Positions 16,833 through 59,480 of a DNA stretch of 64,000 nt are shown here, piece after piece (within the stretch, counting starts at the first letter, position 1; each line of letters starts with the position of its first letter). Origin of the DNA: a virus (lineage: Duplodnaviria; Heunggongvirae; Uroviricota; Caudoviricetes). The notes beneath the pieces were generated by a model. The model saw nothing but the letters and a program-made list of their open reading frames with translations. It was not told where the DNA came from and did not search any database. Both the position numbers and the translations under genes were made by a program. Location of the stretch: the IMG/VR virus record IMGVR_UViG_3300000553_000021, positions 13,528 to 77,527 of that record. One strand, 5' to 3'.

Positions 16833-17726
16833 ATGAAAACTAAAGATGATATATCCACATCAAAATATATTCAAAGGTATGGTTTAATGTATTTTAAATA
16901 CAAAAAAGATACTACCAAATTAATAGTTACATCTCCAAAATGTGGAACTAGATATTTTACAGGATTAGCAGAATATAATACCGATTTTATTAGATTCCAT
17001 CCATCATTAGATACGATGGAAGCAAATGATAAGTATTTTGATGAATTATCTGAAATATATTGGATTGTAAGACCACCAATGGAGCATGCAATTTCTGCTA
17101 TTATGACAGAACATTCATCTAATATGGATAATTTAACAAACCCAAATCAAACTTCATCTAAATTAAAAATTAAAAAACAAGATGAAGATTGGAAACTTAA
17201 TGTTTTAGAACAATTATTATCGGATATATTAACTAAACCATATTTTACAAGTAATAGTCGTGATGGTATAGATGGTGTTTTTAGCCATTATAACCCAAGA
17301 TATGAAAATATTTACAATGATATACCAAATAGACTTGAATTATTTTCAAAAATAAAATTTATAGAATTAAAAGATTTATCTAACTTAATTAAAAATGAAT
17401 TTAATATAACTGATAATTTTAAAAGTAAAGAATATGGCATGGATAGATTTTTTACAAAAGATAGTTTAGTAGAAACAATTAAAATTAATTTTCCAGATAT
17501 GTGGGAAAAATTACAAGGAATAATTAATATCGAAGAACAGTATTATAACTTAATATTAAATTATGATTATCATCCCATATTTAGTGAAAAAATAAAAGAA
17601 TCACATAACGAAATAGATGTGGTATATGAAAAACTAAATAAAGAATTGGATATAGCATATCAAAAGCATGCAAAATATATTGAAACTTATTTAAAATATA
17701 AGAGTAAAAATATATGTAATGTATAA
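16833..17726 (+). CDS. hypothetical protein; possible sulfotransferase-like
   Basis: VTSPKCGTRYF resembles the PAPS 5'-phosphosulfate-binding PKSGTTW loop; IVRPPMEHAISA resembles the 3'-phosphate-binding block; weak. Confidence 0.45.
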   Translation: MKTKDDISTSKYIQRYGLMYFKYKKDTTKLIVTSPKCGTRYFTGLAEYNTDFIRFHPSLDTMEANDKYFDELSEIYWIVRPPMEHAISAIMTEHSSNMDNLTNPNQTSSKLKIKKQDEDWKLNVLEQLLSDILTKPYFTSNSRDGIDGVFSHYNPRYENIYNDIPNRLELFSKIKFIELKDLSNLIKNEFNITDNFKSKEYGMDRFFTKDSLVETIKINFPDMWEKLQGIINIEEQYYNLILNYDYHPIFSEKIKESHNEIDVVYEKLNKELDIAYQKHAKYIETYLKYKSKNICNV

Positions 17727-17759
17727 CTCATTGATTTACAATGACTTATAAAAAAGTAC

Positions 17760-17796
17760 CCTAAAAATTAGGTATTTTCAGTATATTTTCGTATCT
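17760..17796 (+). promoter_or_regulatory. promoter, -7 TATCTTTG 17789-17796 (no clear -33)
   Basis: TAnnTTTG 26 nt upstream of ATG 17823; preceded by the TAACTCATTGATT repeat element. Confidence 0.4.
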
Positions 17797-17822
17797 TTGA
17801 CTATATATCAAACATTAAAAAA

Positions 17823-19200: not shown

Positions 19201-19207
19201 ATCCAAA

Positions 19208-23795: not shown

Positions 23796-24110
23796 ATGAG
23801 TTTTATAATAACAAGTAAATGTACAGATTTATGTGATGGTGGGTGTTTAAAGGTTTGTCCTATGGATTGTATTCATGGACCTATCAATCCTACCGGTGAG
23901 GGTAAAGAGCTCCAAGAAGCAAAGCAAAATGGGGTTAAAGGCATACAATTATACATAAACCCTAATGATTGTATTGATTGTAGTGCTTGTATACCTGAAT
24001 GTCCTGTTGACGCCATTGTATCTAGTGAGAAAATAGCTATACAACTCGGTGAATATCAATCAGTTACACGAAATTATGAATTTTTTGGGTTAAAATATTT
24101 GGATAATTGA
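23796..24110 (+). CDS. 2x[4Fe-4S] ferredoxin
   Basis: CIDCSACIPECPVDAI (CxxCxxCxxxCP) plus the N-terminal Cys cluster CTDLCDGGCLKVCPMDC. Confidence 0.65.
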   Translation: MSFIITSKCTDLCDGGCLKVCPMDCIHGPINPTGEGKELQEAKQNGVKGIQLYINPNDCIDCSACIPECPVDAIVSSEKIAIQLGEYQSVTRNYEFFGLKYLDN

Positions 24111-24505: not shown

Positions 24506-24658
24506 ATGAAAAAAGTGTTAGCAATTTTCGCTATCGCAGCTTTAGCAGCTTGTGGTGGTGCAAAAACAGAAGTTAAAACCGATTCAACATCAGTAAAAAC
24601 AGATTCAACAGCAGTAGTTGCTGATTCTACTAAAACTGATAGTACAATCGTTAAGTAA
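24506..24658 (+). CDS. small lipoprotein with KTDST repeats (50 aa)
   Basis: MKKVLAIFAIAALAACGG lipobox; repeats KTDSTSV/KTDSTAV/KTDSTIV; not in ORF track (shorter than 60 aa). Confidence 0.45.
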   Translation: MKKVLAIFAIAALAACGGAKTEVKTDSTSVKTDSTAVVADSTKTDSTIVK

Positions 24659-24665
24659 TTTAAGA

Positions 24666-24697
24666 GGGGATAAGAGATTATCCCCTTTTTTATTTTT
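24666..24697 (+). terminator. rho-independent terminator
   Basis: GGGGATAA-GAGA-TTATCCCC perfect hairpin + TTTTTTATTTTT. Confidence 0.7.
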
Positions 24698-24710
24698 ATG
24701 GAGTAACAAG

Positions 24711-25148
24711 ATGATTAAATGGAAACAAGAAATGCAAGAAAGTTACAATTTATATTTAGATGATATTAGAGAACCTAAACAATCATTCAAAAAGACTGGT
24801 GATAATAGATATGTGGATTTACATTGGAAAGTAGTACGAAATTATCAAGAATTTGTAGAACAAATTGTATTACATGGTATTCCAAATATTGTATCATTTG
24901 ACCACGATTTAGGTGAGGAACATATAAACTACTATTTTGATAATGGTGGTAGAGAAAATCCACCCGACCCGTTAAAAGGCCACTTTACTGAAAAAACAGG
25001 ATATGATTGTGCAAAATGGTTAGTAGAATATTTAACCGAAAATGGTTTACCTATGCCGGAGTATTTAATACATTCAGCTAATCCTGTGGGTAGTGAAAAT
25101 ATTAGGGCAATCCTTAAAAGATACACCGAAATACACCAATTTTCATAA
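24711..25148 (+). CDS. receiver-like (CPR-type) domain protein
   Basis: LYLDDIREP...IVSFDHDLG...GYDCAKWLVEY...IHSANPVGSEN resembles cyclic-phosphate-processing receiver domains seen in phages; start moved to ATG 24711 after the terminator. Confidence 0.4.
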   Translation: MIKWKQEMQESYNLYLDDIREPKQSFKKTGDNRYVDLHWKVVRNYQEFVEQIVLHGIPNIVSFDHDLGEEHINYYFDNGGRENPPDPLKGHFTEKTGYDCAKWLVEYLTENGLPMPEYLIHSANPVGSENIRAILKRYTEIHQFS

Positions 25149-25240
25149 CTCATTGATTATCAACGACTTACGATATTAGTAAAAAAACTAATATGTAAGT
25201 GATTGAGCGTCAACGATTTTAAAAAAACTTTCCAAAAAGC

Positions 25241-25271
25241 TTGGCGGTTTGGATATTTTTTCGTAACTTTG
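25241..25271 (+). promoter_or_regulatory. promoter (-33 TTG 25241-43; -7 TAACTTTG 25264-71), part of repeated module
   Basis: TTGGCGGTTTGG...TCGTAACTTTGGGTATA, near-identical to 28043-28073. Confidence 0.5.
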
Positions 25272-25797: not shown

Positions 25798-25844
25798 GAT
25801 AGTTCGGAACATTGGTAGGGGTTCGATTCCCCTACTATCTTCAA
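25796..25844 (+). other. tRNA acceptor/T-arm-like minihelix (not a complete tRNA)
   Basis: AAGATAGT...AGGGG-TTCGATT-CCCCT-ACTATCTT; GGTTCGATTCC matches the T-loop consensus, but only 13 nt separate the 5' acceptor strand from the T-stem (no D or anticodon arms). Confidence 0.45.
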
Positions 25845-25870
25845 TTAATTAAAATCTAAAACATAAAAGT

Positions 25871-27943: not shown

Positions 27944-28042
27944 AAAACACTAAAAAACCTAACTGATTGATTATCAACAAGTTATATATTACACTAAAAA
28001 GTGGGGCATAACTGGTTGATTATCAGTAGGTTAAAAAAAGAT

Positions 28043-28073
28043 TTGGCGGTTTGAGAAAATTGTCGTAACTTCG
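28043..28073 (+). promoter_or_regulatory. promoter (-33 TTG 28043-45; -7 TAACTTCG 28066-73), part of repeated module
   Basis: TTTGGCGGTTTGAG...TGTCGTAACTTCGAGTATA. Confidence 0.45.
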
Positions 28074-28125: not shown

Positions 28126-29358
28126 ATGAGTAAGGTAAAAAACATGGAATTTGGGTACACAAACGAAATTTACAAAGTAGAAAATGTTAAATCTCGTTTT
28201 TGTTTGGTAAACACAAAAGGTGATGTATTAGATAGTACAGCATCAACAATTGTAGGTAGTTCATTAAGAAAGAAAGCCGCAACAACTGGTAAAGCAGTTA
28301 GAGGTTATGTAGGTAAAAATGGTGATAAATCATATCGTTTAGTTGATATGCAAGAATACACCGATTTGTTAGTTAGACCTATGAATACTGACATCGCTGA
28401 AACTATCGTAGAAAATCCTACGGAGCATGAGGATGTTAAGAAATTCATTCACGAGGATGGTATCGCATTGAAACCAGCTAACTTAATTATGAATGAGTTA
28501 AAGTGGAAATACTTATTACGTTCAGCAGTTCGCGCTCGTAATATTATGATGACCGGACCTGCTGGTAGTGGTAAGACAATGGCCGCTAAAGCATTAGTAG
28601 AAGCGTTAAAGAGACCTTTCTACTACTTTAACTTAGGTGCAACGCAAGACCCGCGTGCTGCGTTAATTGGTAACACACACTTTAACAAAGCAAGTGGTAC
28701 TTATTTTAGTGAGAGTGCGTTTGTAAAAGCAATCAAAACGCCATACGCAGTAATCTTATTGGATGAGTTGAGTAGAGCACATCCTGAGGCATCAAATATC
28801 TTAATGACTGTGTTAGACCAAACACAAAGATACTTAAGATTAGATGAGCAAGATAATTCACCAATTGTTAAGGTAGCTGAGGGTGTTACATTTATCGCAA
28901 CTGCCAATATCGGTTCGGAGTATACAGCAACACGTGTTATGGACCGTGCGTTGTTAGACCGTTTCGTTACAATTGAGGTAGATACATTAGATAAGGATAA
29001 GGAGTTTGAATTGTTAGAGATGTTATATCCTGACACAAACAAAGAGGATTTGAAAGCAGTAGCTGAAATTGCAGCACACACTAGAGACCAAATCAAAGGT
29101 GATGCTGGTAAATTAACTACCGCAATTTCTACTCGTATTTCAGTAGAGATGGCTGGTTTGTTATATGATGGTTTTGATTTGTTAGAAGCAGCTGAGGTAG
29201 CAATCTTCCCGTTCTATTCACAAGATGGTGGAATGGATAGTGAGCGTACTTATATCAAACAATTAGTGCAAAAATATTTGCGTACTGATGATGGTGAAAA
29301 GTTATTCAACGAAGTGACAGAGGATGCTAACGCAGACGACGATACAATCACTTGGTAG
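28126..29358 (+). CDS. AAA+ ATPase, MoxR/CobS-like
   Basis: Walker A MMTGPAGSGKT; Walker B VILLDELSRA. Confidence 0.65.
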   Translation: MSKVKNMEFGYTNEIYKVENVKSRFCLVNTKGDVLDSTASTIVGSSLRKKAATTGKAVRGYVGKNGDKSYRLVDMQEYTDLLVRPMNTDIAETIVENPTEHEDVKKFIHEDGIALKPANLIMNELKWKYLLRSAVRARNIMMTGPAGSGKTMAAKALVEALKRPFYYFNLGATQDPRAALIGNTHFNKASGTYFSESAFVKAIKTPYAVILLDELSRAHPEASNILMTVLDQTQRYLRLDEQDNSPIVKVAEGVTFIATANIGSEYTATRVMDRALLDRFVTIEVDTLDKDKEFELLEMLYPDTNKEDLKAVAEIAAHTRDQIKGDAGKLTTAISTRISVEMAGLLYDGFDLLEAAEVAIFPFYSQDGGMDSERTYIKQLVQKYLRTDDGEKLFNEVTEDANADDDTITW

Positions 29359-31583: not shown

Positions 31584-32435
31584 ATGAAAAAAGTATTAGC
31601 ATTAGTAGCATTAGTAGTGACATTAGGTAGTTGTACCCGTATCAGTCCAACCGAAGTAGGATTTAAGATTGACAATAGTGGTGATTATAGAGGTATAGAT
31701 AGTTTACCTTTATTGACTGGGTTTCAGTTTTACACACCGGGTTTTACATATATTGTGACAATCCCAACAACACAACAACACGTCGCATGGGTTGAGGATG
31801 CAAGTGAGGGTAAACCAATTGATGAAGCAATTGTAGTTAGTTGTAATGGTGGTGCCGGTTTCAAAATGGATATTGGTTTAAACTACCGTGTTAATCCAAC
31901 AAAAGCATCTAAGATTTACTTAAAGTATAAAACGGATGACTTAGAAAGTATTACAAACACTTATTTACGAAATGTAGTTAGAGGTAGTATGCAAGATGTG
32001 AGTGGTTTATTGACAGTTGATAGTATCTTAAATAACTTACCAGGTTTTGAAGCAGCAGTTCGTAAGAATGTAACTGAACGATTTGAGAAAGATGGTTTCA
32101 TTGTAGATAACTTTAGTATCTTAAAACAACCAACACCAACTGATAAGAGTTTATCCGATGCGATTAACGCTAAGATTAGAGCAAAGCAAGATGCTGAAAC
32201 ATCAAAGATGCAATTACAAAGTTCAATCGCTGAGGCTAACAAACAAATTGCTAAAGCAAGAGGTGATAGTGCAACGAAAGTAATTAACGCAATGGGTGAG
32301 GCTGAGGCAGTTAAGAAAATTCAGCAAGTATTGACTCCTACTTATGTTGAGTATATCAAAGCAAGTAGATGGAACGGAGTTCAACCATCAGTTGTAGGTG
32401 GTGGCGGTGGAATGATATTACAATTAAAACAATAA
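31584..32435 (+). CDS. SPFH/band-7 (prohibitin/HflKC-like) lipoprotein
   Basis: Lipobox MKKVLALVALVVTLGSC; C-terminal coiled-coil DAINAKIRAKQDAETSKMQLQSSIAEANKQIAKARGD typical of band-7 family. Confidence 0.5.
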   Translation: MKKVLALVALVVTLGSCTRISPTEVGFKIDNSGDYRGIDSLPLLTGFQFYTPGFTYIVTIPTTQQHVAWVEDASEGKPIDEAIVVSCNGGAGFKMDIGLNYRVNPTKASKIYLKYKTDDLESITNTYLRNVVRGSMQDVSGLLTVDSILNNLPGFEAAVRKNVTERFEKDGFIVDNFSILKQPTPTDKSLSDAINAKIRAKQDAETSKMQLQSSIAEANKQIAKARGDSATKVINAMGEAEAVKKIQQVLTPTYVEYIKASRWNGVQPSVVGGGGGMILQLKQ

Positions 32436-35935: not shown

Positions 35936-36336
35936 GTGAAAGAAAGTATCTCCCAACATTAGCGGAGTTAATTGACAGATTGAGTATAGCTCAATTAAAA
36001 GAAGTAAAGATTCCTGAACACAAAGCAGAATATGCAAAAGAAATTGCAGACATCGTACATGATATTCAATTGTGTTTAGATGATAGTGACACGCCGGTTA
36101 GTGCAGAAACTATTAGAGCAATTGTAGTATTAGCACAAATTAATACTCACATTTGGCAGAACGAATCAAACTATCGTAAAGGTATTAAAGAGGGTAACAA
36201 TTTAGAATTAACACATGGTATCAATGGTATAAGAAATACAGCCAAAAACAAAATTCAAGAAGTTGTGGGTGGACGTATGGACTATAAGATTGATTGTTTA
36301 GCAGCAGAGTTTAAAGATTGGGAAATTTCTTGGTAA
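35932..36336 (+). CDS. hypothetical protein
   Basis: ORF track. Confidence 0.5.
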   Translation: MSERKYLPTLAELIDRLSIAQLKEVKIPEHKAEYAKEIADIVHDIQLCLDDSDTPVSAETIRAIVVLAQINTHIWQNESNYRKGIKEGNNLELTHGINGIRNTAKNKIQEVVGGRMDYKIDCLAAEFKDWEISW

Positions 36337-36397
36337 AATAACCCTAAAATAAGGTAACATATTAGAAAAAACCCTAATATACTACCCTAAAACATAA

Positions 36398-36441
36398 CCC
36401 ATTGATTATCAGCAAGTTATAACTAGTTGATTTTCAATGGG
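36398..36441 (+). repeat. 44-bp imperfect palindrome CCCATTGATTATCAGCAAGTTATAACTAGTTGATTTTCAATGGG (module repeat, long form)
   Basis: Outer arms CCCATTGA/TCAATGGG; central GTTATAAC and AACTAGTT palindromes; related copies at 44756-44806, 27961-27995, 25146-25175, 17724-17745. Confidence 0.7.
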
Positions 36442-36540
36442 TTATTTATGTCTATTACATTTTTTTTATATATGAAAAAAACATATATGTAACTCATTGA
36501 TTATCATCAAAAAACTTCTAAAAATACTTTGACCAAGCCA

Positions 36541-36570
36541 TTGTCACGTCGCTAAATAGTCGTAACTTTG
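36541..36570 (+). promoter_or_regulatory. promoter (-33 TTG 36541-43; -7 TAACTTTG 36563-70), conserved with 44870-44899
   Basis: CATTGTCACGTCGCTAAATAGTCGTAACTTTGGG vs CATTGCCACGTCGCAAAAAAGTCGTAATTTAGAC. Confidence 0.55.
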
Positions 36571-36616
36571 GGTATATCCCAACAATGAGAGGGGTGGTAT
36601 ATAAAAAAATTATAAT

Positions 36617-37444
36617 ATGAATACAATGAAATTTACAACAATCGGTAATGCTAAAAAGGTAACTGGTTTATCTTATTTAGGTAGTGTAGCAAGTAGTTCA
36701 AAAATTGCTAAAGGTTTAAAGTACAATGAGATGACTTATATATTGTATCTTGCACCTGCTGAACAAAGTGGTTATAATGTTTGTCCTGGTTCTACCGAAG
36801 AATGCCGAACAGCGTGTTTAACTGAAAGTGGACATAATAGAATTGACGTAAAGAAAAACGCAATCAATAACGCTCGTATCAAAAAGACTAAATTGTTCTT
36901 TGAGCATAGAGAGTTCTTTATGGCTTGGTTGATTATGGAAATTACAAAAGCTAGAGTTGAAGCAATTAAGCAAGGTTATAAGTTTTCAGTTCGTATCAAT
37001 GGTACATCTGATATTAGTTTAGTTAGTTTCAAATTAGGTGATATGAATATATTGGAGTATTTTCCAAATGTTCAATTCTATGATTATACTAAAGTTGCTA
37101 ATCGTTTCAAATTGACTGAAAAATATCCTAACTACGATTTAACATATTCGTTCAGCGGTTACAATATGTTACAATCTATGGAGTTATTACAAAGTGACAA
37201 AGGTAGGGTTGCTATGGTATTTGAGGGTAAAGTATTACCTAAAACCTTTATGGGTATTGAGGTTATTGATGGTGATGCATATGATATGAGATACTACGAT
37301 GCAAAGAATGTTATTGTAGGATTGAAGTTTAAGAAAGTAAGAAATAAAATTGATACTGCTAACAACAAGTTCATTATACCAATGGATAGTAAATTTAGTG
37401 TTTATGAAAAACAACAAACGAAAGTTAAAGTTACTGCCAAATAG
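36617..37444 (+). CDS. hypothetical protein with CPGSTEECRTAC Cys motif
   Basis: ORF track 275 aa; first gene after the repeat/promoter module. Confidence 0.5.
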   Translation: MNTMKFTTIGNAKKVTGLSYLGSVASSSKIAKGLKYNEMTYILYLAPAEQSGYNVCPGSTEECRTACLTESGHNRIDVKKNAINNARIKKTKLFFEHREFFMAWLIMEITKARVEAIKQGYKFSVRINGTSDISLVSFKLGDMNILEYFPNVQFYDYTKVANRFKLTEKYPNYDLTYSFSGYNMLQSMELLQSDKGRVAMVFEGKVLPKTFMGIEVIDGDAYDMRYYDAKNVIVGLKFKKVRNKIDTANNKFIIPMDSKFSVYEKQQTKVKVTAK

Positions 37445-37964: not shown

Positions 37965-37974
37965 TAATAACAAT

Positions 37975-38223
37975 ATGGAAAATACAGCAATGAGGTTTCA
38001 CACATTAGATTATAAAAGTAAATTATCTTTGATTAATAGATTATTAAAAATGTATTACTTTGAATTAGACACGACACCTAACGCGGAATATAATTATAGA
38101 GATTTATTAGAAATACGTATTGATAAGATAAAAAAAACACGTTATCTTTTACTAAATGGAACATATAAAACAAAAGTAAAAAATACAGATAATCTTATTA
38201 ATCATTTAAAACATATGAAATAA
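37975..38223 (+). CDS. hypothetical protein
   Basis: ORF track. Confidence 0.4.
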   Translation: MENTAMRFHTLDYKSKLSLINRLLKMYYFELDTTPNAEYNYRDLLEIRIDKIKKTRYLLLNGTYKTKVKNTDNLINHLKHMK

Positions 38224-38224
38224 T

Positions 38225-38905
38225 ATGAGTAGATCAAAATATTACATAGCTACAATCCCAATGAAAAATGAGGAGCAAGTTATGGAAATCAAAAAGGTAT
38301 TAGAACAAATCTTTGGTTGGGTAGTATTGAAAGGTAGACATAGTGATAGAAAATCAGTATTAAAGAATTGGGCAAAGAGTAAACAAAATGATGTACCTTG
38401 GAGATTAGCTGAATACATTGATATTTACTTACACCCAAAAAATCCAAACTATACTAATAAAGCAGGTATCAAAAGACAGAATATGGATTTAGCTACTATG
38501 AGTGTTGTTACTGCTCGTATATTGGGTAGAATGAAATTGAGTTTAGCAGATGGACACTATAATAAACTACAAAGTAAAAAGAATCCTGCTTTCCAAGCTA
38601 TATCTAATTCTTTGTATGGAAATGGACAAAAAGTTGTAGTGACAAAAACACCAAAAAACTCACCACATTCGGGTAAACCTTACGGACAAGTTGCTAAACA
38701 AATATGGCAGTTTATGAATAATAGACCTGATGCAACTTATACTGAAATGAAAACATTTTATGATGTTGATATTAGAGGTAATAGTGGTATCATTGAGGGT
38801 GGTAGTTTTGTTCATCACTTACAATCATTAAGAAACCCATCCACAAAAAGAGGTTGGTATTTAGCTAAACAATTAAACGGCAAGTATGCATTGAGGGGTT
38901 GTTAA
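38225..38905 (+). CDS. hypothetical protein
   Basis: ORF track 226 aa. Confidence 0.5.
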   Translation: MSRSKYYIATIPMKNEEQVMEIKKVLEQIFGWVVLKGRHSDRKSVLKNWAKSKQNDVPWRLAEYIDIYLHPKNPNYTNKAGIKRQNMDLATMSVVTARILGRMKLSLADGHYNKLQSKKNPAFQAISNSLYGNGQKVVVTKTPKNSPHSGKPYGQVAKQIWQFMNNRPDATYTEMKTFYDVDIRGNSGIIEGGSFVHHLQSLRNPSTKRGWYLAKQLNGKYALRGC

Positions 38906-38906
38906 T

Positions 38907-39116
38907 ATGAAAACATTTGTAGCAATTTACTTTATATTAATGCTCCCTATGGTAATACAAACTCATAACTTAATGAAGCTTGGTATAGATGAAAGAATAA
39001 GAAATAGTGTTAGATATAACTTTAGAGTATTCATACGATTAATATTCTATATGCCGCGGTGGTGGTGGTTATTCTTTATAGACTTAACAAATAAATTTAA
39101 AAATAAAAACAAATAA
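38907..39116 (+). CDS. small membrane protein
   Basis: hydrophobic N-terminus. Confidence 0.35.
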   Translation: MKTFVAIYFILMLPMVIQTHNLMKLGIDERIRNSVRYNFRVFIRLIFYMPRWWWLFFIDLTNKFKNKNK

Positions 39117-39117
39117 T

Positions 39118-39339
39118 ATGGCAATTTACAATAACGATATTGACCCAAATGTATTAATGTGGGAACAATTAGAAGCAGAACGTATAGCAACAATGAGTGA
39201 CCCCAACTTTCAAAAATGGGTGCAAGAATTACATGTTTCTCAATCATATGAGGACCCAACATTAAAACATAACGCATTGGATATGATGAACCAATACGAT
39301 AGTAAAAATTATTCTAAATTAAACTTTAACATTAACTAA
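39118..39339 (+). CDS. hypothetical protein
   Basis: ORF track. Confidence 0.4.
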   Translation: MAIYNNDIDPNVLMWEQLEAERIATMSDPNFQKWVQELHVSQSYEDPTLKHNALDMMNQYDSKNYSKLNFNIN

Positions 39340-39340
39340 T

Positions 39341-39745
39341 ATGAACTTAATCGAATCAATAGAAAAATCAAAATGGATGTCAATAGCAGGTTATCATAAA
39401 GAAGCCTTGGACAAAGTAAATGAAGCATTATCATATCTTAATGAGAAAGATATAGCCGGTGAAACACATGTTAAAGTTTATACTCCTGTTTGGGGTGAGG
39501 CTATTATGACAAAGTATGGTAAAGCAAAACGTGTTGACCGATACGATAAGGTAGAAACAAAAACAATAGAGTTTTGGAAAGATCGTTTCTATGATTTATT
39601 ATTGTTATTCACACAAAGATATAATCGTAAGATGGGTATCAAACCAAAGAAAGAAAAACCATTTAAAAAACATGGTATTGAAACTTATATGAATACAGCA
39701 TCGTTTGGTAGTGCCGGACCTGCATATAGAAACCATTTAGACTAA
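39341..39745 (+). CDS. hypothetical protein
   Basis: ORF track. Confidence 0.45.
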   Translation: MNLIESIEKSKWMSIAGYHKEALDKVNEALSYLNEKDIAGETHVKVYTPVWGEAIMTKYGKAKRVDRYDKVETKTIEFWKDRFYDLLLLFTQRYNRKMGIKPKKEKPFKKHGIETYMNTASFGSAGPAYRNHLD

Positions 39746-39900
39746 TGAAAACATATTACGATATAACCATAGTGACAAAGTTAGGTGATAAGGTGAATAT
39801 AAACAAATTATCCTATTCACACATTACACAGCTAACCACTAATGAGGATATAGAAACAATAATAATAAACAAAGAATATTCAAAGAAAATAAAAAAATAA
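39745..39900 (+). CDS. small hypothetical protein (51 aa)
   Basis: TAATG stop-start overlap with upstream gene; fills the gap before 39905. Confidence 0.3.
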   Translation: MKTYYDITIVTKLGDKVNINKLSYSHITQLTTNEDIETIIINKEYSKKIKK

Positions 39901-39904
39901 AATT

Positions 39905-40159
39905 ATGAGTTACGTTAGTATAGACATTGATATTGATGACATTATGTATTCGTTATCTAGACGTGAAAAACAAGAATTAGTTGATGAACTTTATGAAGAT
40001 GGGTATTGCCCAAAAGCATTAGAGGGAACACTAAAGGATGATGAAATACAATATCCAAAAGATTTCGATTTACAAGTCAAAAAGTTAATCGGTAATAGTT
40101 GGAAGTTATCCAAAGAGGATGAGGAAACAATATTAAGAATAGCAAATAAATTAGTATAG
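39905..40159 (+). CDS. hypothetical protein
   Basis: ORF track. Confidence 0.4.
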   Translation: MSYVSIDIDIDDIMYSLSRREKQELVDELYEDGYCPKALEGTLKDDEIQYPKDFDLQVKKLIGNSWKLSKEDEETILRIANKLV

Positions 40160-40160
40160 T

Positions 40161-40499
40161 ATGAAAATCAAATCACATTTTCCTCCATTTTGTTTTGAAA
40201 GTCCGGTGACTGGAAAGAAATGGATAGTATGTACCGGTAAAGGTGCAGAATGGATAGAAGTAAACCGATGGTATGGGTGGACAGAGTTGGAAGGTATGTG
40301 GGATAAGATTGTGTATGGACATGAAAAGACATGGGAAACCAAAAGTGACAAGAAAGAATACAAAGTTAAAGGTAGTAAAGATAATGTGTATAAGGTAGTT
40401 AATGATGGTGGTATTTGGACTTGTAGTTGTCCCGCACATGGTTTCGGTAGAGGTAAAGATTGTAAACATATTATTCAAATAAAAAGTAAAAAGAAATAA
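40161..40499 (+). CDS. SWIM zinc-finger protein
   Basis: C-terminal WTCSCPAHGFGRGKDCKHIIQ = CxCx(n)CxH SWIM signature. Confidence 0.5.
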   Translation: MKIKSHFPPFCFESPVTGKKWIVCTGKGAEWIEVNRWYGWTELEGMWDKIVYGHEKTWETKSDKKEYKVKGSKDNVYKVVNDGGIWTCSCPAHGFGRGKDCKHIIQIKSKKK

Positions 40500-40500
40500 A

Positions 40501-40650
40501 ATGAGTAACGAAAAAATTGAAGTAAACATCTATTATTACATAGATGAAGATGGAAAAAAAGTATATGACTTTGAACAAATGACTGATGAGTTTGAACAAA
40601 AGTTATCGGAATTGGATGATAGTGTAGTAGTAATCGTATCAGTTGAATAA
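40501..40650 (+). CDS. small acidic protein (49 aa)
   Basis: ATG directly after upstream stop; not in ORF track. Confidence 0.3.
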   Translation: MSNEKIEVNIYYYIDEDGKKVYDFEQMTDEFEQKLSELDDSVVVIVSVE

Positions 40651-40666
40651 TTAAAACAAATTAAAG

Positions 40667-40828
40667 ATGGAGCAAAAAGAAAGTAATTCAAACAAACACT
40701 TTAGAATAAGTGTATTAAAATCTGGTGTTAGAATGTTCGGTTGTGTATTCTTAATGTATGGTAGTTTATTCACAGCAGGATGTTTATTATTTATTGCCGA
40801 ATGTTTCGGAGTAATTGAAGAACTATAA
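40667..40828 (+). CDS. small membrane protein (53 aa)
   Basis: hydrophobic helices; A-rich TTAAAACAAATTAAAG upstream. Confidence 0.3.
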   Translation: MEQKESNSNKHFRISVLKSGVRMFGCVFLMYGSLFTAGCLLFIAECFGVIEEL

Positions 40829-40839
40829 AATTTAAAACA

Positions 40840-41052
40840 ATGATAAAAGATAAAAAAGAAACAGGTATTGAAATTGATTTAACAGGTCCTAATGGTAATG
40901 CATTTTATCTAATTGGTACAGCAAAGAACTTAGCTAAACAATTAGGATTAGATGGTAAAGCAATTCAATTAGAAATGATGCAAGGTAATTATGAGCATTT
41001 AATAAATGTATTTGATAAACACTTTGGAGAATTTGTAACCTTATATAGATAA
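40840..41052 (+). CDS. hypothetical protein
   Basis: ORF track. Confidence 0.4.
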   Translation: MIKDKKETGIEIDLTGPNGNAFYLIGTAKNLAKQLGLDGKAIQLEMMQGNYEHLINVFDKHFGEFVTLYR

Positions 41053-41138
41053 AATTATGTTAGTAAGAGTAATAGAAATTGGAATGATAACTGGATTTGT
41101 ATTGGCACTATGGGGTGTTGATAGTATTATAAATAAAT

Positions 41139-41543
41139 TTGAAAACAAAAATAAAAAATAATTTTATGGGATTAGATATGTTCGCTTTTTCTACTAAAGC
41201 AAAACCAAAATCGGAAGTAGACTTTGAAACTAAAAACTTTCAACCAGAAGAAATACACTATTGGCGTAAGCACCCTAACTTACATGGTTGGATGCAGGAT
41301 TTATATTATGAGAAAGGTGGTAAGGGAAATGACTTTAATGGTGACTGTGTTGTATTAACATTAGATGATTTAGATTGTTTAGAACATGATTTGAAACAAT
41401 TTGATTTACCTGATACCTCTGGTTTTTTCTTTGGTAATTCATCAAGTGATGATGATGAATTAAAAAATGATTTGGAGTTTGTAGCTAAAGCCAGAGAAGT
41501 AATTGCAAATGGTAAGACAGTTTATTATACAAGTTGGTGGTAA
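41139..41543 (+). CDS. hypothetical protein
   Basis: ORF track. Confidence 0.45.
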   Translation: MKTKIKNNFMGLDMFAFSTKAKPKSEVDFETKNFQPEEIHYWRKHPNLHGWMQDLYYEKGGKGNDFNGDCVVLTLDDLDCLEHDLKQFDLPDTSGFFFGNSSSDDDELKNDLEFVAKAREVIANGKTVYYTSWW

Positions 41544-41689
41544 AATGCAAAGTTATGAAAAAACTAATAAAGAAAACAATTAGACAAATCTTTCATAAAT
41601 TAAAAGAGAAAAAGAAAGAAAAACTTTTAATTAAAAAAATGGAAAGTGATTGGAACGAAAGATTAAAATACATTCAAAGTAAATAAATT

Positions 41690-42052
41690 ATGAGTATACA
41701 AAAAATGAGTAGAAACCCTATAATGTTAGTAGATAAGGTATTTGAAATTCCATTATTTGCCGCTACGGGACAACAATACATATGTACCGAAGTTGCAGAT
41801 TTAGGTGTGGATGCACGTAGTAAAAGATATGGGGTATATTTAAAATGGCTTCCAACATCATATTCAGTACCTGAAGTATTAAGAATGGATATTGAAATAT
41901 TTAGTTCATCTAATAGTTTAATTAATGTAACCTTATATGAAAAAACGGATAATGGTAGTTATGTTGTAACTTGTAATGGAACATTTCTTAGGGATTTAAT
42001 ATCAACACCTAGTAAAATACAAAGATTGATTACTGAACTAATTAACAAATAA
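41690..42052 (+). CDS. hypothetical protein, paralog of 48039..48407
   Basis: Shared MLVDK.F.IP.F.A.T..Y.C..V......YSVPE pattern. Confidence 0.5.
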   Translation: MSIQKMSRNPIMLVDKVFEIPLFAATGQQYICTEVADLGVDARSKRYGVYLKWLPTSYSVPEVLRMDIEIFSSSNSLINVTLYEKTDNGSYVVTCNGTFLRDLISTPSKIQRLITELINK

Positions 42053-42429
42053 TGAAAACAAAAACATACTTTAGTGAGTTTCGTAGTGACATTGCGGTAG
42101 CTATTTTGGGTAAAGATGATTACCGATATGATGTTCTCAAACCTATCTTTGATGAATGTGGTTTTGGATTTACCGAAACATCATCAGCATGTGTATTCAT
42201 TGATGGTGAGATTAAACTAACCAAAGATGAATTGAAGTGGGTTGAGGCACATGAGGTAGCACATATATTATTAAAACATACAAAGGATAGAAACCCTAAC
42301 GATGAAATAGCAGCAGATATGTTTGCAATCATCTTACTAAAAGATAAAGGATATAATAAAGCCGCACAATTAGTAGAGGACAAATTTGAAGAAAGACATA
42401 AACGTAAATATTATGAAACTAACAATTAA
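42052..42429 (+). CDS. ImmA/IrrE-family zinc metallopeptidase (DUF955-like)
   Basis: HEVAHILLKH (HExxH) followed by EIAADMFAIILL (E..A..FA block). Confidence 0.55.
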   Translation: MKTKTYFSEFRSDIAVAILGKDDYRYDVLKPIFDECGFGFTETSSACVFIDGEIKLTKDELKWVEAHEVAHILLKHTKDRNPNDEIAADMFAIILLKDKGYNKAAQLVEDKFEERHKRKYYETNN

Positions 42430-42721
42430 TAACTTTAAGAAACTTAAAGAACAAAGATGGGATGAACAAAACTATATTGAAAGTATTACTGAAAAAGTTG
42501 ACCGTTATGAAATTAGTGTATGGAGAGACCATATGCGACAATATATTATGTTAGAAAGAAAGCCAGTAGAAAATGGTTATTACATAATTGGTAAATGGAG
42601 TAACGAAGCACATTGTGTAAGATATCCATATTGGATAAAGCATGAGGATATAGTGGATATTACAAAACTGATGGATAAACTTAAATTAATGACAGATAGT
42701 TGGTCACCTAAATTATTATAA
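42413..42721 (+). CDS. MLTIKNI-family small protein (divergent member, MKLTINN start)
   Basis: ORF track 42386..42721; internal ATG 42413 gives MKLTINNFKKL...RYEISVW...GYYIIGKWS matching family blocks. Confidence 0.4.
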   Translation: MKLTINNFKKLKEQRWDEQNYIESITEKVDRYEISVWRDHMRQYIMLERKPVENGYYIIGKWSNEAHCVRYPYWIKHEDIVDITKLMDKLKLMTDSWSPKLL

Positions 42722-42722
42722 A

Positions 42723-43301
42723 ATGAAAAAATTATTAGTGGGGTTATTATTATTTGCAACATTTAGTTGTAACGGACAAAATTTAGATACATCCTTAACA
42801 AAAGAGGACAGTATGAATGTAAAGAATGTTCAAATGGCAGTGTGGTCGTTACCATTTAAACATAAAGATATTATAGTAGCACAGGCGATATTAGAGAGTG
42901 GGTGGTTTAAATCCCGTAATTGTGTTAATAACAATAACCTATTCGGAATGAGGCGGGCATACACCAGAATGACAACAAGTGATACTACATTAAACGGATA
43001 TGCACACTACGCAAATTGGAGAATGAGTGTTATTGATTATTATTTATTACAATCAACACGAGAAAGTATTATACCATCCAGTAGAGCACAATACTTTAGA
43101 TATTTGGACAAAGTATATAGTGAAGTTGGTAGGAATTATAGTGACCAATTAAAGGATATATTAAGTAGATTGAATTTAGAAACGGATGAACCAAAGGTAG
43201 AACCAAAAGTAATTAAACATAAAACTATTAAACATGCAAAAGCCAGTAAACTTTCAAAAGGTAGACAACGAAATATTAAAAATAAAAAGTCAGAGTATTA
43301 G
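42723..43301 (+). CDS. secreted peptidoglycan hydrolase (glucosaminidase/FlgJ-type domain), lysin-like
   Basis: Signal/lipobox MKKLLVGLLLFATFSC; VAQAILESGWFKSRNCVNNNNLFGMR matches the glucosaminidase AQAxLESGWG...NNLFGIK block. Confidence 0.55.
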   Translation: MKKLLVGLLLFATFSCNGQNLDTSLTKEDSMNVKNVQMAVWSLPFKHKDIIVAQAILESGWFKSRNCVNNNNLFGMRRAYTRMTTSDTTLNGYAHYANWRMSVIDYYLLQSTRESIIPSSRAQYFRYLDKVYSEVGRNYSDQLKDILSRLNLETDEPKVEPKVIKHKTIKHAKASKLSKGRQRNIKNKKSEY

Positions 43302-43776
43302 AATAGATGTATGTAATTCACCTGAAGGATTTTTTGTATTCCAAGATAATGGAGGACCTGCCCAAACGTGGAACAATGCCGTTCTATTTGAAATGGATTG
43401 GGCAAATGATAAATACAATGTTAAAATATGTGCTTTAGGTGAGGGAGTTGATGGTTGGTATATACATGAAAACTTACCAATACCAAAATCATATATGAAA
43501 ACATTAAGTTTATTCAAAGAGTTTGTTCATGATAATATGTTGGATGTAGCATCGAAAGTATCTTTACACAAAATAGAACCTAATACAATGGGACTAACTG
43601 AATTAGATGCGGTTGAAATATCACATACAGTCGCAAGTAGTTCAGGTCCGACATCGTATGTAGTGACAGAAAATGTTGGTGGGTTAGCTGGGTTATGGAG
43701 TTGTACTTGTCCTGCATATCAGTATAGTAAATCATTACCACAAACTTGTAAACATATTAAACAATTAAATCCGTAG
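43234..43776 (+). CDS. SWIM zinc-finger protein
   Basis: C-terminal WSCTCPAYQYSKSLPQTCKHIKQL; start uncertain (overlaps upstream gene by 68 nt). Confidence 0.45.
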   Translation: MQKPVNFQKVDNEILKIKSQSIRIDVCNSPEGFFVFQDNGGPAQTWNNAVLFEMDWANDKYNVKICALGEGVDGWYIHENLPIPKSYMKTLSLFKEFVHDNMLDVASKVSLHKIEPNTMGLTELDAVEISHTVASSSGPTSYVVTENVGGLAGLWSCTCPAYQYSKSLPQTCKHIKQLNP

Positions 43777-43779
43777 TAT

Positions 43780-44088
43780 ATGATAACAATTGCAAATATA
43801 AGATCAGAGTTAATGCATATGCAAATATATGATGGGATTTATATAGATGATATTATAGAAAAGAAAAAAAATGGTTATAATATATATCATATATGTTTAA
43901 GAAATCATGAGGGTGCAACATACAACATTTTCTTTTATAGAGAATTGGGACAGGGTGGTATACCTACAAAATATCTATTTGGTTGTCCTGAAGCAGAATT
44001 GGGTGAGTATTTAAGTGAGGATGAAGTAAAAGCAAAGGGTATGGTGATATACACATTTACCAAATTAATTAAATCAGCAAGAGGATAA
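43780..44088 (+). CDS. MLTIKNI-family small protein
   Basis: MITIANIRSEL...YNIYHICLRNHEG...TYNIFFYRE. Confidence 0.5.
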   Translation: MITIANIRSELMHMQIYDGIYIDDIIEKKKNGYNIYHICLRNHEGATYNIFFYRELGQGGIPTKYLFGCPEAELGEYLSEDEVKAKGMVIYTFTKLIKSARG

Positions 44089-44089
44089 T

Positions 44090-44449
44090 ATGTTACACAT
44101 TAAAAACTATTCAAAAATAATAGGTGACTTTATTGAATATAAAGAATATACATTAGGTATCGAATCTATAACACAAATGGCAGACAGCTATCATATATTA
44201 GTTTACTTAAATCGTGATGGAGTAAAAGAGGACTATATCGGTATGGAATTGACACGAACTAAAAAAGCAAAGTATAGATACCAATTATATCAAACACATA
44301 TGCATCATAATAATACCGCAGTGACATTAGATTGTATCCAGAATTTAGATTGGTTTGGGTATATAATATGTAAAATGGCAGGTAATGGTAATTGGCAGAT
44401 GAATATACCAGCATGGTCACAAAATAACCCTAGTAAAAAAATAAATTAA
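44090..44449 (+). CDS. MLTIKNI-family small protein
   Basis: MLHIKNYSKIIG...SYHILVYLNRDG...YRYQLYQTH. Confidence 0.5.
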   Translation: MLHIKNYSKIIGDFIEYKEYTLGIESITQMADSYHILVYLNRDGVKEDYIGMELTRTKKAKYRYQLYQTHMHHNNTAVTLDCIQNLDWFGYIICKMAGNGNWQMNIPAWSQNNPSKKIN

Positions 44450-44455
44450 AACACA

Positions 44456-44725
44456 ATGAAAACATTTAATGATTTAGAATTTGTACCACACTTAATGGGT
44501 GTAGGTATTATGAGCCGTATTACATTTGATAATGGATATGGTGCATCAGTAGTTAAAACACCTTACACTTATGGTGGTGATAAGGATTTGTATGAATTGG
44601 CAGTATTAGATAACGATGGTAATTTAACATATGAAACACCTGTTACGGATGATGTTATAGGTTATTTAAGACCTATGGATGTAACGGACGTAATGGAAAA
44701 AATACAGCAACTACCTAAGATATAG
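44456..44725 (+). CDS. hypothetical protein
   Basis: ORF track. Confidence 0.4.
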   Translation: MKTFNDLEFVPHLMGVGIMSRITFDNGYGASVVKTPYTYGGDKDLYELAVLDNDGNLTYETPVTDDVIGYLRPMDVTDVMEKIQQLPKI

Positions 44726-44750
44726 TAAAAAATCTTAATATGTTGGGTAT

Positions 44751-44806
44751 ATTTCATAACTCATTGATTATCAGCAAGTTATAACTAGTTGGTATTCAAT
44801 GGGTTA
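44751..44806 (+). repeat. module repeat TTTCATAACTCATTGATTATCAGCAAGTTATAACTAGTTGGTATTCAATGGG
   Basis: Near-identical to 36398-36441; a second degenerate copy AACTCGTTGATACTCAATAA at 44821-44843. Confidence 0.7.
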
Positions 44807-44869
44807 TAATTGTTTGACGTAACTCGTTGATACTCAATAAAAACTTTTAAAAATAGTTACCTAAATGCA

Positions 44870-44899
44870 TTGCCACGTCGCAAAAAAGTCGTAATTTAG
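44870..44899 (+). promoter_or_regulatory. promoter (-33 TTG 44870-72; -7 TAATTTAG 44892-99)
   Basis: Conserved with 36541-36570; 19-nt spacing. Confidence 0.5.
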
Positions 44900-44946
44900 A
44901 CTATTACCGACAGGATAGGGTACAATACATAACAAAAATTTATAAT

Positions 44947-45297
44947 ATGAGAGTAATTGATGAAAAAGCAATAGAGTATCTTAAAGGCAATCCTATTGTT
45001 GCCGCATTTATTGATGAAGTTAATGATAAACGATTTAAGTATTACACAAACGCAAGTATGCCTGACCAATATCAAGATGTGATACCTGAAATTGGTAACA
45101 AATACATTCGTTTATGGTGTGGTAGTAGTTGTTGGGGATTTATTAGTAGAGTGGATGGTGACTTAAAAGGTGCACCGATTAAGAAAGGTGATTTGTTAAA
45201 AGCCGCAACTTGGAAAGCACCTGCAAAACATAGTAGAGGTAACATTATAGATGGTACTGCTCAATGGGGTGAATATGGACCTTCTTATATTAAATAA
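44947..45297 (+). CDS. hypothetical protein
   Basis: ORF track; first gene after module. Confidence 0.5.
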   Translation: MRVIDEKAIEYLKGNPIVAAFIDEVNDKRFKYYTNASMPDQYQDVIPEIGNKYIRLWCGSSCWGFISRVDGDLKGAPIKKGDLLKAATWKAPAKHSRGNIIDGTAQWGEYGPSYIK

Positions 45298-46297: not shown

Positions 46298-47392
46298 ATG
46301 AAATTAGAAACGATTTACAAAAAGACAAAGACTGGTGCAACGCAAGAGTGGACAATTGAAGTAGTGGGTAATAAATACCGAACTCATAGTGGACAAGTTG
46401 GTGGACAAATTACAACGAATGAATGGACAATCGTTTATGGTAAGAATGAGGGTAAGTTAAATGAAACTACCGATAAGGAGCAAGCAATGAAAGAAGCGGT
46501 AGCTAAACGAACAAAGAAGTTAGAGAGTGGTTACTTTGAGAATGTTAAAGATATTAATAAGCAACAATACTTTGAACCTATGTTAGCTGCTAAATGGGAA
46601 GATTGTAAAGATAAGGTTACATATCCTATTTACTCTCAACCAAAGTTAGATGGTATTCGTTGTATAGTGACACGACATGGTATGTTTAGTAGAAATGGTA
46701 AACCAATCATTTCAGCTCCACATATTTTCAAAGCATTAGTTCCACTATTTGAGGAAACGCCTGATTTGATATTTGATGGTGAGTTATATGCTGATAAGTT
46801 TGCTAATGATTTCAATAAAATTGTATCGTTAGTTAAGAAAACAAAACCAACGGATAAGGACTTAAAAGAAAGTAAAAAGAATATTCAGTATCACATTTAC
46901 GATTTACCAAGTGTTGATGATACATTTAAGGTTAGATATTCAACATTATGTTCATTGAGATTACCAAAAGAATGTATTGTAGTAAAAACACATTTGGCCA
47001 AAAATGAAGATATTGTAATGGAACGATATGGTGAATATGTAGAAGCAGGTTACGAAGGACAGATGTTAAGAATAGATGGTTTGTATGAAAACAAACGAAG
47101 TAAGAACTTATTAAAACACAAATCGTTTGTTGATGATGAATATACTATTTTAGATATTGTAGAGGGTGAGGGAAACCGAACTGGAACTGCTGGGTATATG
47201 GTATTTGAGACAGAGGATGGTAAACGCTTCAAATCAAATGTAAAAGGAACTTGGGATGAAACTGCTGAAATGCTTAAAAGTAAAAAGAAACTAATAGGTA
47301 AACAAGCAACGATTAAGTATTTTAACTTAACGCCAGATGGAATACCTCGTTTCCCTTATGTAATTAATATAGATAGAGAAAGTTATGAATAG
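46298..47392 (+). CDS. lig: ATP-dependent DNA ligase
   Basis: Motif I SQPKLDGIRC (KxDG), III LIFDGELYA, IV YEGQMLRID, V NLLKHKS. Confidence 0.8.
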   Translation: MKLETIYKKTKTGATQEWTIEVVGNKYRTHSGQVGGQITTNEWTIVYGKNEGKLNETTDKEQAMKEAVAKRTKKLESGYFENVKDINKQQYFEPMLAAKWEDCKDKVTYPIYSQPKLDGIRCIVTRHGMFSRNGKPIISAPHIFKALVPLFEETPDLIFDGELYADKFANDFNKIVSLVKKTKPTDKDLKESKKNIQYHIYDLPSVDDTFKVRYSTLCSLRLPKECIVVKTHLAKNEDIVMERYGEYVEAGYEGQMLRIDGLYENKRSKNLLKHKSFVDDEYTILDIVEGEGNRTGTAGYMVFETEDGKRFKSNVKGTWDETAEMLKSKKKLIGKQATIKYFNLTPDGIPRFPYVINIDRESYE

Positions 47393-59398: not shown

Positions 59399-59449
59399 CA
59401 TATATAACTGGTTGAAAATCAATGAATTAGCTCTAAAATACCAATATTT

Positions 59450-59480
59450 TTGGTAGTTTGGGGCTTTTTTCGTATCTTTG
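59450..59480 (+). promoter_or_regulatory. promoter (-33 TTG 59450-52; -7 TATCTTTG 59473-80), leaderless into ATG 59486
   Basis: TTTCGTATCTTTGACTATATG is the same block as 17786-17800. Confidence 0.5.

Follow-up and report, generated by a model that had tools for sequence, protein, structure and literature searches.

Doubled IHF-consensus palindromes before promoter-like sites in an uncultured Caudoviricetes phage: candidate sites for a DNA-bending HU/IHF-type protein

The stretch of viral DNA analyzed here (64,000 nt, positions 13,528 to 77,527 of the IMG/VR record IMGVR_UViG_3300000553_000021, Caudoviricetes; hereafter, the window) contains a reiterated 25-nt unit with two-fold symmetry, TAACYYRTTGAT-N-ATCAAYRRGTTA, the copies of which occupy six intergenic regions, each ending in a promoter-like site. 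The unit consists of two inverted copies of the consensus for integration host factor (IHF) of Escherichia coli, WATCAANNNNTTR, with the central W in common; each arm, on either strand, reads W-ATCAA-NNNN-TTR. The explanation that we favour, with about an even chance of being correct, is that the elements are architectural double-stranded DNA sites for a dimeric DNA-bending protein of the HU/IHF (DNABII) type, probably encoded by the host, and that they are built into terminator/promoter cassettes. It is the doubling of the IHF consensus that suggests a DNABII architectural protein rather than a classical repressor. A literature search by sequence strings found no earlier description of the palindrome.

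Scanning of the window with the pattern TAACYNNTTGATNATCAANNRGTTA, built from the copies, at up to three mismatches revealed 10 matches, against 0.04 ± 0.20 in shuffled sequences, which is far above the expectation from composition. The proposal of the initial annotation, a reiterated symmetric element tied to promoter cassettes at module boundaries, was borne out. Nine of the matches were located in spacers, and one (24042) was located within the ferredoxin gene and is probably a chance occurrence. The long palindromic form CCCATTGATTATCAGCAAGTTATAACTAGTTGATTTTCAATGGG was found at 36398-36441, and its near copy, which extends from 44756 to 44807 (and not to 44806, as first given), was 94% identical over 53 nt (repeat family D9). 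Each long form was a palindrome of 52 nt whose 26-nt arms adjoin without a spacer (85% complementarity in the first and 81% in the second), and the perfect outer stem comprised 12 bp instead of the 8 bp described before. Each was a tandem pair of units (36395 + 36420 and 44757 + 44782), and the internal mini-palindromes previously regarded as separate features corresponded to the junction of the two. Single units were present at 17724, 25146, 27960, 28009 and 59405, the last three with starts slightly shifted from those first assigned (27961, 28008 and 59407), and degenerate promoter-proximal copies were present at 25196, 36490 and 44820, so that a degenerate copy did follow each long form. 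The features of the six regions are as follows:

17724..17748, single unit TAACTCATTGATTTACAATGACTTA, the first three bases of which are the stop codon of the open reading frame (ORF) 16833-17726; the minus-strand arm AATCAATGAGTTA matches the IHF consensus exactly; RNA fold -7.0 kcal/mol, z -1.9; TTGA 61 nt upstream of the -7 box at 17792
17768..17799, plus strand, promoter-like site, -33 TTAG and -7 TATCTTTG at 17792 (repeat families D2/D6)
25146..25170, single unit TAACTCATTGATTATCAACGACTTA, which overlaps the end of ORF 24618-25148 at its stop codon; IHF-consensus matches in both arms; RNA fold -2.5 kcal/mol, z -0.7
25196..25220, degenerate unit next to the promoter, TAAGTGATTGAGCGTCAACGATTTT, with an A7 tract after it; -7 box 61 nt away
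25241..25271, plus strand, promoter-like site TTGGCGGTTTGGATATTTTTTCGTAACTTTG, -7 box at 25264 (repeat family D6)
27960..27984, unit TAACTGATTGATTATCAACAAGTTA, which fits the pattern without a mismatch; IHF-consensus matches in both arms; RNA fold -4.8 kcal/mol
28009..28033, promoter-proximal unit TAACTGGTTGATTATCAGTAGGTTA, 81% complementary to unit 27960, 22 nt away
28042..28073, plus strand, promoter-like site TTTGGCGGTTTGAGAAAATTGTCGTAACTTCG, -7 box at 28066, 5' of the MoxR-type AAA ATPase gene 28126-29358
36341..36390, plus strand, three ACCCTAA boxes upstream of the long form
36394..36445, long form, units 36395-36419 and 36420-36444; arms match the IHF consensus; -26.4 kcal/mol, z -7.5
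36490..36514, promoter-proximal half unit TAACTCATTGATTATCATCAAAAAA; the left arm is the exact minus-strand IHF consensus, and an A6 tract replaces the right arm; TTGA 66 nt from the -7 box
36539..36570, plus strand, promoter-like site CATTGTCACGTCGCTAAATAGTCGTAACTTTG, -7 box at 36563, 5' of the GP88-family gene 36617-37444
44756..44807, second long form, units 44757-44781 and 44782-44806; -23.9 kcal/mol, z -7.0
44820..44844, half unit next to the promoter, TAACTCGTTGATACTCAATAAAAAC, with A/T tracts after it; -7 box 65 nt away
44868..44899, plus strand, promoter-like site CATTGCCACGTCGCAAAAAAGTCGTAATTTAG, -7 box TAATTTAG at 44892, 5' of gene 44947-45297
59405..59429, single unit TAACTGGTTGAAAATCAATGAATTA, with an IHF-consensus match in the right arm, AATCAATGAATTA; RNA fold -2.2 kcal/mol, z -0.2
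59449..59480, plus strand, promoter-like site TTTGGTAGTTTGGGGCTTTTTTCGTATCTTTG, -7 box at 59473, with the unit's TTGA 61 nt upstream of it

In the window and in related phage loci, the cassettes carried from one to six units. The largest array was found in a related phage contig (L006:7395-7640), with five units spaced about 25-27 nt apart followed by a proximal unit and a promoter, and the same array was present in L002:45-230.

Exact matches to WATCAANNNNTTR were found 25 times in the window, with 12.2 ± 3.8 expected, and the excess is due to the 12 matches that are arms of the elements. The arms include TATCAATGAGTTA and AATCAACGAGTTA, both of which appear verbatim in a table of predicted IHF consensus sites of Dickeya genes with changed expression in ihf mutants (PMC9452768). 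The window segment 36403-36420, ttgatTATCAGcaagTTA, differed from the lambda H' site ttgctTATCAAtttgTTG (PMC2709558) solely at non-consensus or R positions. In chromosomal loci of a Microscillaceae genome, 43 cores in 79 kb were picked by TTGA...TCAA alone and not by the search pattern, and their logo contained T/A/A at positions -12 to -10, T at -1, W at 0, A at +1 and T/T/R at +10 to +12, that is, TAA-N4-TTGAT-W-ATCAA-N4-TTA, with both N4 blocks informationless and non-complementary. This logo reads as the mirrored IHF consensus, recovered without being asked for, at nine unanchored positions and with exact spacing. In TTGAT-W-ATCAA, 9 bp separate the TT step from the AA step, and in the IHF-H' complex the kinks are spaced 9 bp, with WATCAR between them (bioRxiv 10.1101/382655). 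The geometry of the unit is therefore compatible with two kinks 9 bp apart in a homodimer complex whose register we infer.

The strict palindrome was matched at least 120 times in a scan of 185,579 species genomes and at least 120 times in IMG/VR viral contigs. Among the genome matches listed, 73 belonged to Bacteroidota, 27 to Fibrobacterota and 3 to other members of the Fibrobacteres-Chlorobi-Bacteroidetes (FCB) group (FCB about 86% by a tally of record titles, a bias that may be skewed by the order of the scan), while 10 (8%) belonged to the Planctomycetes-Verrucomicrobia-Chlamydiae (PVC) group and 7 lay outside both groups. This distribution fits a symmetric homodimer site in lineages without the IHF alpha/beta heterodimer. 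Sites within ORFs were rare (4 of 151 bacterial and 5 of 242 viral), and bacterial sites were located in divergent spacers more often than in convergent ones (30 vs 16). The density in a bacterial chromosome was about one motif per 2 kb, between unrelated housekeeping genes. The richest loci, those of the Microscillaceae genome, encode hydrogenase-maturation proteins (hypD/F/B), trpC and sensor kinases, and this gene content identifies them as chromosomal; together with the lack of any homologue of a window protein in the 120 bacterial loci, it rules out mis-binned phage contigs as the source of the bacterial matches. The Fibrobacterota share of the listed genome matches was reached although this phylum is small, and in Fibrobacter loci (L109, L115-L118, L127, L128, L136 and others) the palindrome stood in DNA of about 50% G+C without T-runs or extended stems. 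An extended sequence, ccgctttaaaacacTAACCCATTGATTTTCAATGGGTTAttttatgcctgtagc, was nearly unchanged in contigs of freshwater Bacteroidota metagenome-assembled genomes (L114, L126, L130, L134, L175 and L208), with two copies on a single contig of 20.7 kb; a conserved locus or mobile-element ends could account for it.

The initial annotation had also offered a structured RNA as an explanation. In its fuller form, this explanation states that the elements act as 3'-end hairpins that terminate transcription, protect mRNA or serve RNase processing, with a sequence inherited by duplication, and we consider it unlikely. The units do stand just after stop codons, at a median of 54 nt from the upstream gene vs 221 nt to the next gene, and two of them (17724 and 25146) overlap the stop codon itself; the long forms fold stably (z about -7) and are followed by U-rich stretches. 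In some relatives, an ACCCC...GGGGT hairpin with T5-6 after it has the first unit at its tip (-25 to -29 kcal/mol, z -7 to -9), and some such hairpins lack the TTGAT core. On the sense strand, the G·U/A·C ratios were 20/27, 79/56 and 27/17, the latter two being the viral sets, in which there was a mild G·U excess; overall, G·U did not clearly exceed A·C. The single units, however, behaved differently: they folded at -2.2 to -7.0 kcal/mol (z -0.2 to -2.4), five of the seven no better than shuffled sequences. There was no covariation between the arms, since the left and right N4 blocks paired 82 times in the phage family vs 87.1 ± 4.9 with shuffled partners, and 48 times in bacteria vs 42.6 ± 5.1. 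The combination of G7 and C19, in which both arms end in ATCAAC, was found in none of 104 family units, with about 7 expected from base frequencies, a gap that may be due to the relatedness of the copies. Complementarity of the flanks did not extend beyond 1 bp, and an extended stem was present in only about 13 of 187 family units. A search of the whole window against Rfam gave nothing at the gathering threshold, and at E ≤ 10 in 36300-36650 the best hits were miRNA models with an E-value of 0.4; a known RNA family was thus ruled out, Rfam having returned noise only. Terminator scanning found none in 36200-36700, whereas ordinary GC-rich terminators with T-runs were found elsewhere in the window (about 19205, 21830, 24660 and 29400); the long forms, stable as they are, are AT-rich, and their U tracts are interrupted, unlike those of an intrinsic terminator. 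Among the elements, a stable GC-containing hairpin with a U-run directly after it was seen only in the GC-clamped versions of some relatives. Moreover, the promoter-proximal half units cannot form a hairpin, yet they are the best conserved in position, and the bacterial copies, with non-complementary N4 blocks, favour divergent spacers. Consequently, selection on the single units appears to be on sequence and not on pairing, which favours a DNA site, and a structured-RNA reading may apply to the long forms only. A terminator or stabilizer role of the distal paired copies is likely a secondary function and not what defines the element.

The three ACCCTAA repeats at 36341, 36371 and 36384, described before as iteron-like, are present, but the heptamer is only mildly enriched in the window (14 vs 7.6 expected; 1 of 100 shuffled sequences reached 14). 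The iteron-like reading is not supported; in relatives, the ACCC(C/T) box forms the 5' base of a GC-clamped hairpin, its pairing partner being GGGG(T) beyond the first unit, and a T-run accompanies the hairpin.

A promoter-like site with a -33 TTTG and a -7 TAnnTTTG box followed every element, as had been claimed, giving six -7 boxes in total. The two promoter types distinguished earlier were reduced to one, the Bacteroidota -33/-7 type with variant -33 regions. The strict form TTTG-N17-21-TAnnTTTG was enriched in the window (16 vs 4.6 expected), and four intergenic promoter-like sites (4006, 18914, about 21860 and 56273) had no element. In the window, the promoter-proximal copies carried A5-6/T4-6 tracts about 6 nt from the core (36507-36512 and 44837-44851), where the other copies have the second consensus half; in relatives, too, the unit nearest to the promoter retained the distal arm (TAACTCGTTGAT), with an A/T tract in place of the proximal arm. 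This arrangement resembles the layout of asymmetric IHF sites, an A-tract beside WATCAANNNNTTR. The distance from the proximal TTGA to the -7 box, counted in relatives over distinct sequences, was 55 nt (n = 14), 65-67 nt (n = 14) or 61 nt (n = 4), and the modes at 55 and 66 nt differ by one helical turn. In the 55-nt class, 25 nt separated the unit from the -33 box, with a variable sequence and a constant length. A short inverted repeat, e.g., GGGTATATCCC, opens the leader 36571-36616 just 3' of the -7 box, and the 5' leaders of relatives carry analogous GGG...CCC pairs; these could form a 5' stem-loop in the transcripts.

The two-fold symmetry had suggested an operator for a dimeric regulator. 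Of this suggestion, the dimeric DNA-binding-protein site is favoured, but a phage-private operator is not, because the motif is also plentiful between the genes of unrelated Bacteroidota chromosomes and in many viral contigs, and the window yielded no regulator gene. A conventional dimeric transcription factor, whether host-encoded or encoded by a part of the phage genome outside the window, might instead use the element as its operator and time the cassette promoters, with the likeness to IHF sites coincidental; in our view, this alternative is rather improbable. The two conserved blocks per symmetric half-site, the position upstream of six of about ten promoter-like sites, the promoter distance conserved in relatives and the additional bases of the phage copies (TAAC/GTTA, YYR) beyond the bacterial logo are all in its favour. 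However, about one motif per 2 kb of a bacterial chromosome is the pattern of a nucleoid protein and not of a regulon, the nine unanchored positions reproduce WATCAANNNNTTR with exact spacing, and neither a helix-turn-helix nor any other regulator domain turned up in the Pfam scan of 60 window ORFs.

The cassettes at 36380-36625 and 44742-44955 aligned with those of relatives L016 and L025 at 78% mean column identity. In L016, the homologue of gene 44947 directly follows the GP88 operon with no cassette between them; the block of small ORFs of about 7.3 kb (37965-44725) and the second cassette, both present in the window, are absent. Of 37 distinct relatives, 20 had units in the 320 nt upstream of their homologue of gene 44947, and the other 17 had none there. 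Such coincidence of cassette presence or absence with gene order fits recombination at the cassettes. A comparable arrangement is known for the promoter-early stem-loop (PeSL) cassettes of T4-type phages, in which a stem-loop and a host-type early promoter stand between gene modules; they are tied to the gain and loss of gene blocks, and recombination at the cassettes has been proposed. In both cases, near-identical stem-loop/promoter cassettes flank a variable gene block, here 37965-44725. However, the phage lineage and the promoter type are unrelated, recombination here is read from sequence comparison, and the conserved part here resembles a protein-site consensus common to host chromosomes.

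Selfish or neutral palindromes, such as repetitive extragenic palindromes (REP), bacterial interspersed mosaic elements (BIME) or miniature inverted-repeat transposable elements (MITE), spread by recombination or a transposase and without a role in expression, would account for extragenic, repeated and palindromic copies, sometimes paired in inverted orientation or arrayed in groups of as many as six (L006:7395-7640), and for the gene-order differences among relatives; nevertheless, this is very improbable, since the Pfam scan of 60 window ORFs yielded no RAYT or IS200/IS605 transposase, the single units are not the stable hairpins that such transposases require (stable stem-loops arise from tandem pairs only), the same consensus is found across phylum-level distances and in unrelated phages, and the position relative to promoters is constrained. 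The E. coli RIP/RIB elements, i.e., BIMEs of enterobacteria with an IHF site between two REP hairpins, are a precedent for such an origin. Like the elements described here, they consist of extragenic palindromes that recur where transcription units end, and they include an IHF consensus; in the window, in contrast, the IHF-type sequence is itself the palindrome, single units are poor hairpins, and the elements are phage-borne and coupled to promoters, with no REP-type transposase among the ORFs scanned. Among other known motifs, an FNR/CRP box (TTGAT-N4-ATCAA) was rejected by eye on spacing, a Fur 7-1-7 box because only the central TGATAATCA is common, a DnaA box because it is one mismatch off and unpaired, an integron attC site because RYYYAAC...GTTRRRY is required, and CRISPR repeats because there is no regular spacing.

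The binder of a DNABII site would have to be a homodimer in Bacteroidota hosts, which lack IHF-beta. Bacteroidetes have an IHF-alpha-like clade and no IHF-beta, and homodimerization and sequence reading by this protein were posed as "to be tested" (bioRxiv 10.1101/2024.06.24.600358). Between one and three classical HU/IHF-like proteins are present in Bacteroidetes, one of them being a host factor in the integration of CTnDOT (PMC5499826), and all crAss-like phages of Bacteroidota encode IHF-like subunits (PMC7886860). The most probable binder is a host IHF-alpha-like homodimer, and the alternative is a phage copy encoded outside the window. This assignment, to the host or to another part of the phage genome, follows from the gene searches: phmmer with E. 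coli HU-alpha, IhfA and IhfB as queries found no HU/IHF gene among the 392 six-frame ORFs of the window or in 645 kb of related phage loci, and no DNA-binding domain was detected in the window ORFs scanned with Pfam and PHROGs (60 plus 10). The sole phmmer match among 225 loci was a bacterial HU gene in locus L219, 5' of which there was no palindromic or consensus site.

It should be noted that these negative searches weigh against a DNABII site, and so do several other points. The binder is hypothetical, and we infer its identity, the bending and the effect on transcription alike. The IHF consensus is that of the proteobacterial heterodimer and may not be the specificity of Bacteroidota DNABII proteins, and the phage copies keep extra bases (C4/G22, TAAC/GTTA, YYR) that are not in the bacterial logo. 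A minority of the copies in relatives clearly have the build of GC-clamped hairpins with T-runs, and some of these (e.g., L013 and L039) lack the left TTGAT core, with several G·U pairs in such hairpins; in these copies, structure rather than protein binding seems to have been kept. The six promoters of the window have distances of 50, 61, 61, 61, 65 and 66 nt between the proximal unit and the -7 box, and with steps of about 5-6 nt they do not all lie on one helical face. In bacterial and unrelated viral loci, there was no fixed distance from the unit to the -7 box and no peak, which ruled out a fixed site-to-promoter distance as a general rule; the positioning of the units appears to be constrained within each promoter lineage and is not universal. 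The possible effect of scan order on the FCB share belongs here as well.

If the elements are DNABII sites, the cassette may work as follows. One to six units are placed between the end of a transcription unit and the next host-type -33/-7 promoter, and a DNABII dimer would bind each unit and bend it sharply. The unit nearest to the promoter, with its distal arm and A/T tract, would be centred about 57-73 bp upstream of the presumed transcription start. The bound protein would fold the upstream DNA and thereby set promoter strength, or insulate the promoter from upstream transcription and supercoiling; arrays of bends could wrap the upstream DNA onto RNA polymerase or isolate the promoter. Where two units abut and form the 52-nt palindrome, a hairpin in the transcript may stop or stabilize upstream transcripts, and near-identical cassettes could double as recombination points for the gain and loss of gene blocks.

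Known IHF sites of E. coli and its phages include H' of lambda attP and the sites upstream of lambda pL and Mu Pe. The elements share with such sites exact matches to WATCAANNNNTTR, including the 4-bp spacer and the A/G last position, as well as an intergenic and often promoter-upstream location and, probably, an A/T tract beside asymmetric copies; the ATTG-N5-CAAT symmetry is also present in H'. They differ in that the consensus is doubled into a palindrome around one central base pair, and in that the putative sites form arrays of 1-6, in which tandem pairs make 52-nt palindromes. Phage-encoded DNABII proteins are also known: TF1 of Bacillus phage SPO1 has preferred sites near early promoters and prefers hydroxymethyluracil DNA, and the IHF of crAss-like phages is thought to compact DNA in the virion, although we know of no site motif for it; in contrast to both, no DNABII gene was found in this window. 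In mycobacteriophages, the repressor-bound stoperators of Cluster A and the Cluster O palindromes of 17 bp are likewise short conserved sites reiterated in intergenic regions near sigma-A-type promoters, but those are phage-specific, whereas the motif described here is common to host chromosomes and matches a nucleoid-protein consensus.

The window has a G+C content of about 30%, and essentially all its genes are on the plus strand. No DNA-level match of the region was found among 50,697 phage records (megablast and blastn), and protein searches against cultured phages gave distant matches only. In IMG/VR, 39 relatives of one window protein and 57 of another were found, and the contigs that carry them reach about 270 kb. 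With no cultured relative at the DNA level and contigs of this size, the window appears to be part of an uncultured jumbo-phage lineage, mostly from freshwater metagenomes. The -33/-7 promoter-like boxes, a SusC-like receptor gene and lipoprotein signal peptides point to a Bacteroidota host. The SusC-like TonB-dependent receptor gene is full-length (19272-21803; CarboxypepD_reg, Plug and beta-barrel), with a canonical terminator just 5' of it (about 19205-19245), and an outer-membrane transporter of this kind is an unusual auxiliary gene in a phage. Other auxiliary and repair genes of the window identified by the Pfam scan, together with one family of small ORFs, are listed below:

23796-24110, 4Fe-4S ferredoxin
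24618-25148, cREC_REC domain protein
28126-29358, MoxR/CbbQ AAA ATPase
31584-32435, SPFH/Band-7 protein
46298-47392, ATP-dependent DNA ligase
48704-49246, protein with a HAD_SAK_2 domain of RNA-repair type
60470-61348, UV endonuclease UvdE
45976, 47710, 48409, 61986, 62254, 62632, 62931, 63605 and 63930, small paralogous ORF family

The last family comprises about nine paralogous ORFs of about 100 aa that share the N-terminal start ATGCTAAC (MLTI.NI..; repeat families D3/D8); the seven members scanned with Pfam had no match. A tRNA-like 3' fragment (T-arm and acceptor end, GGTAGGGGTTCGATTCCCCTACTATCTTCA) was located at about 25810-25850, in the spacer before gene 25871; ARAGORN made no call for it and found no tRNA or tmRNA in the window, and the fragment could be the remnant of an att site or a decayed tRNA. 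A 495-aa ORF (2483-3970) contains tandem coding repeats rich in Ser/Ala (2790-3080; families D1 and D12), the periods of which are 12/24 and 45 nt.

A broader reading, which we hold tentatively and with somewhat less than even confidence, is that Bacteroidota, and perhaps the FCB and PVC groups, have a homodimeric, sequence-specific IHF-like protein with the optimal site YAA-N4-TTGAT-W-ATCAA-N4-TTR, and that phages copied this site into portable cassettes. The site would then be a genome-wide intergenic repeat, and the cassettes would recruit the host protein for early transcription and allow gene modules to be swapped. A doubled IHF palindrome in the spacers of Bacteroidota and their phages is the trace that would be expected of a sequence-specific homodimer, and it provides a concrete 25-mer. 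For annotation, it offers a simple motif by which regulatory spacers can be recognized in the genomes of Bacteroidota and of their viruses. It also suggests a model of how an uncultured jumbo-phage lineage may organize its promoters for the host RNA polymerase, in which identical cassettes may drive the exchange of modules.

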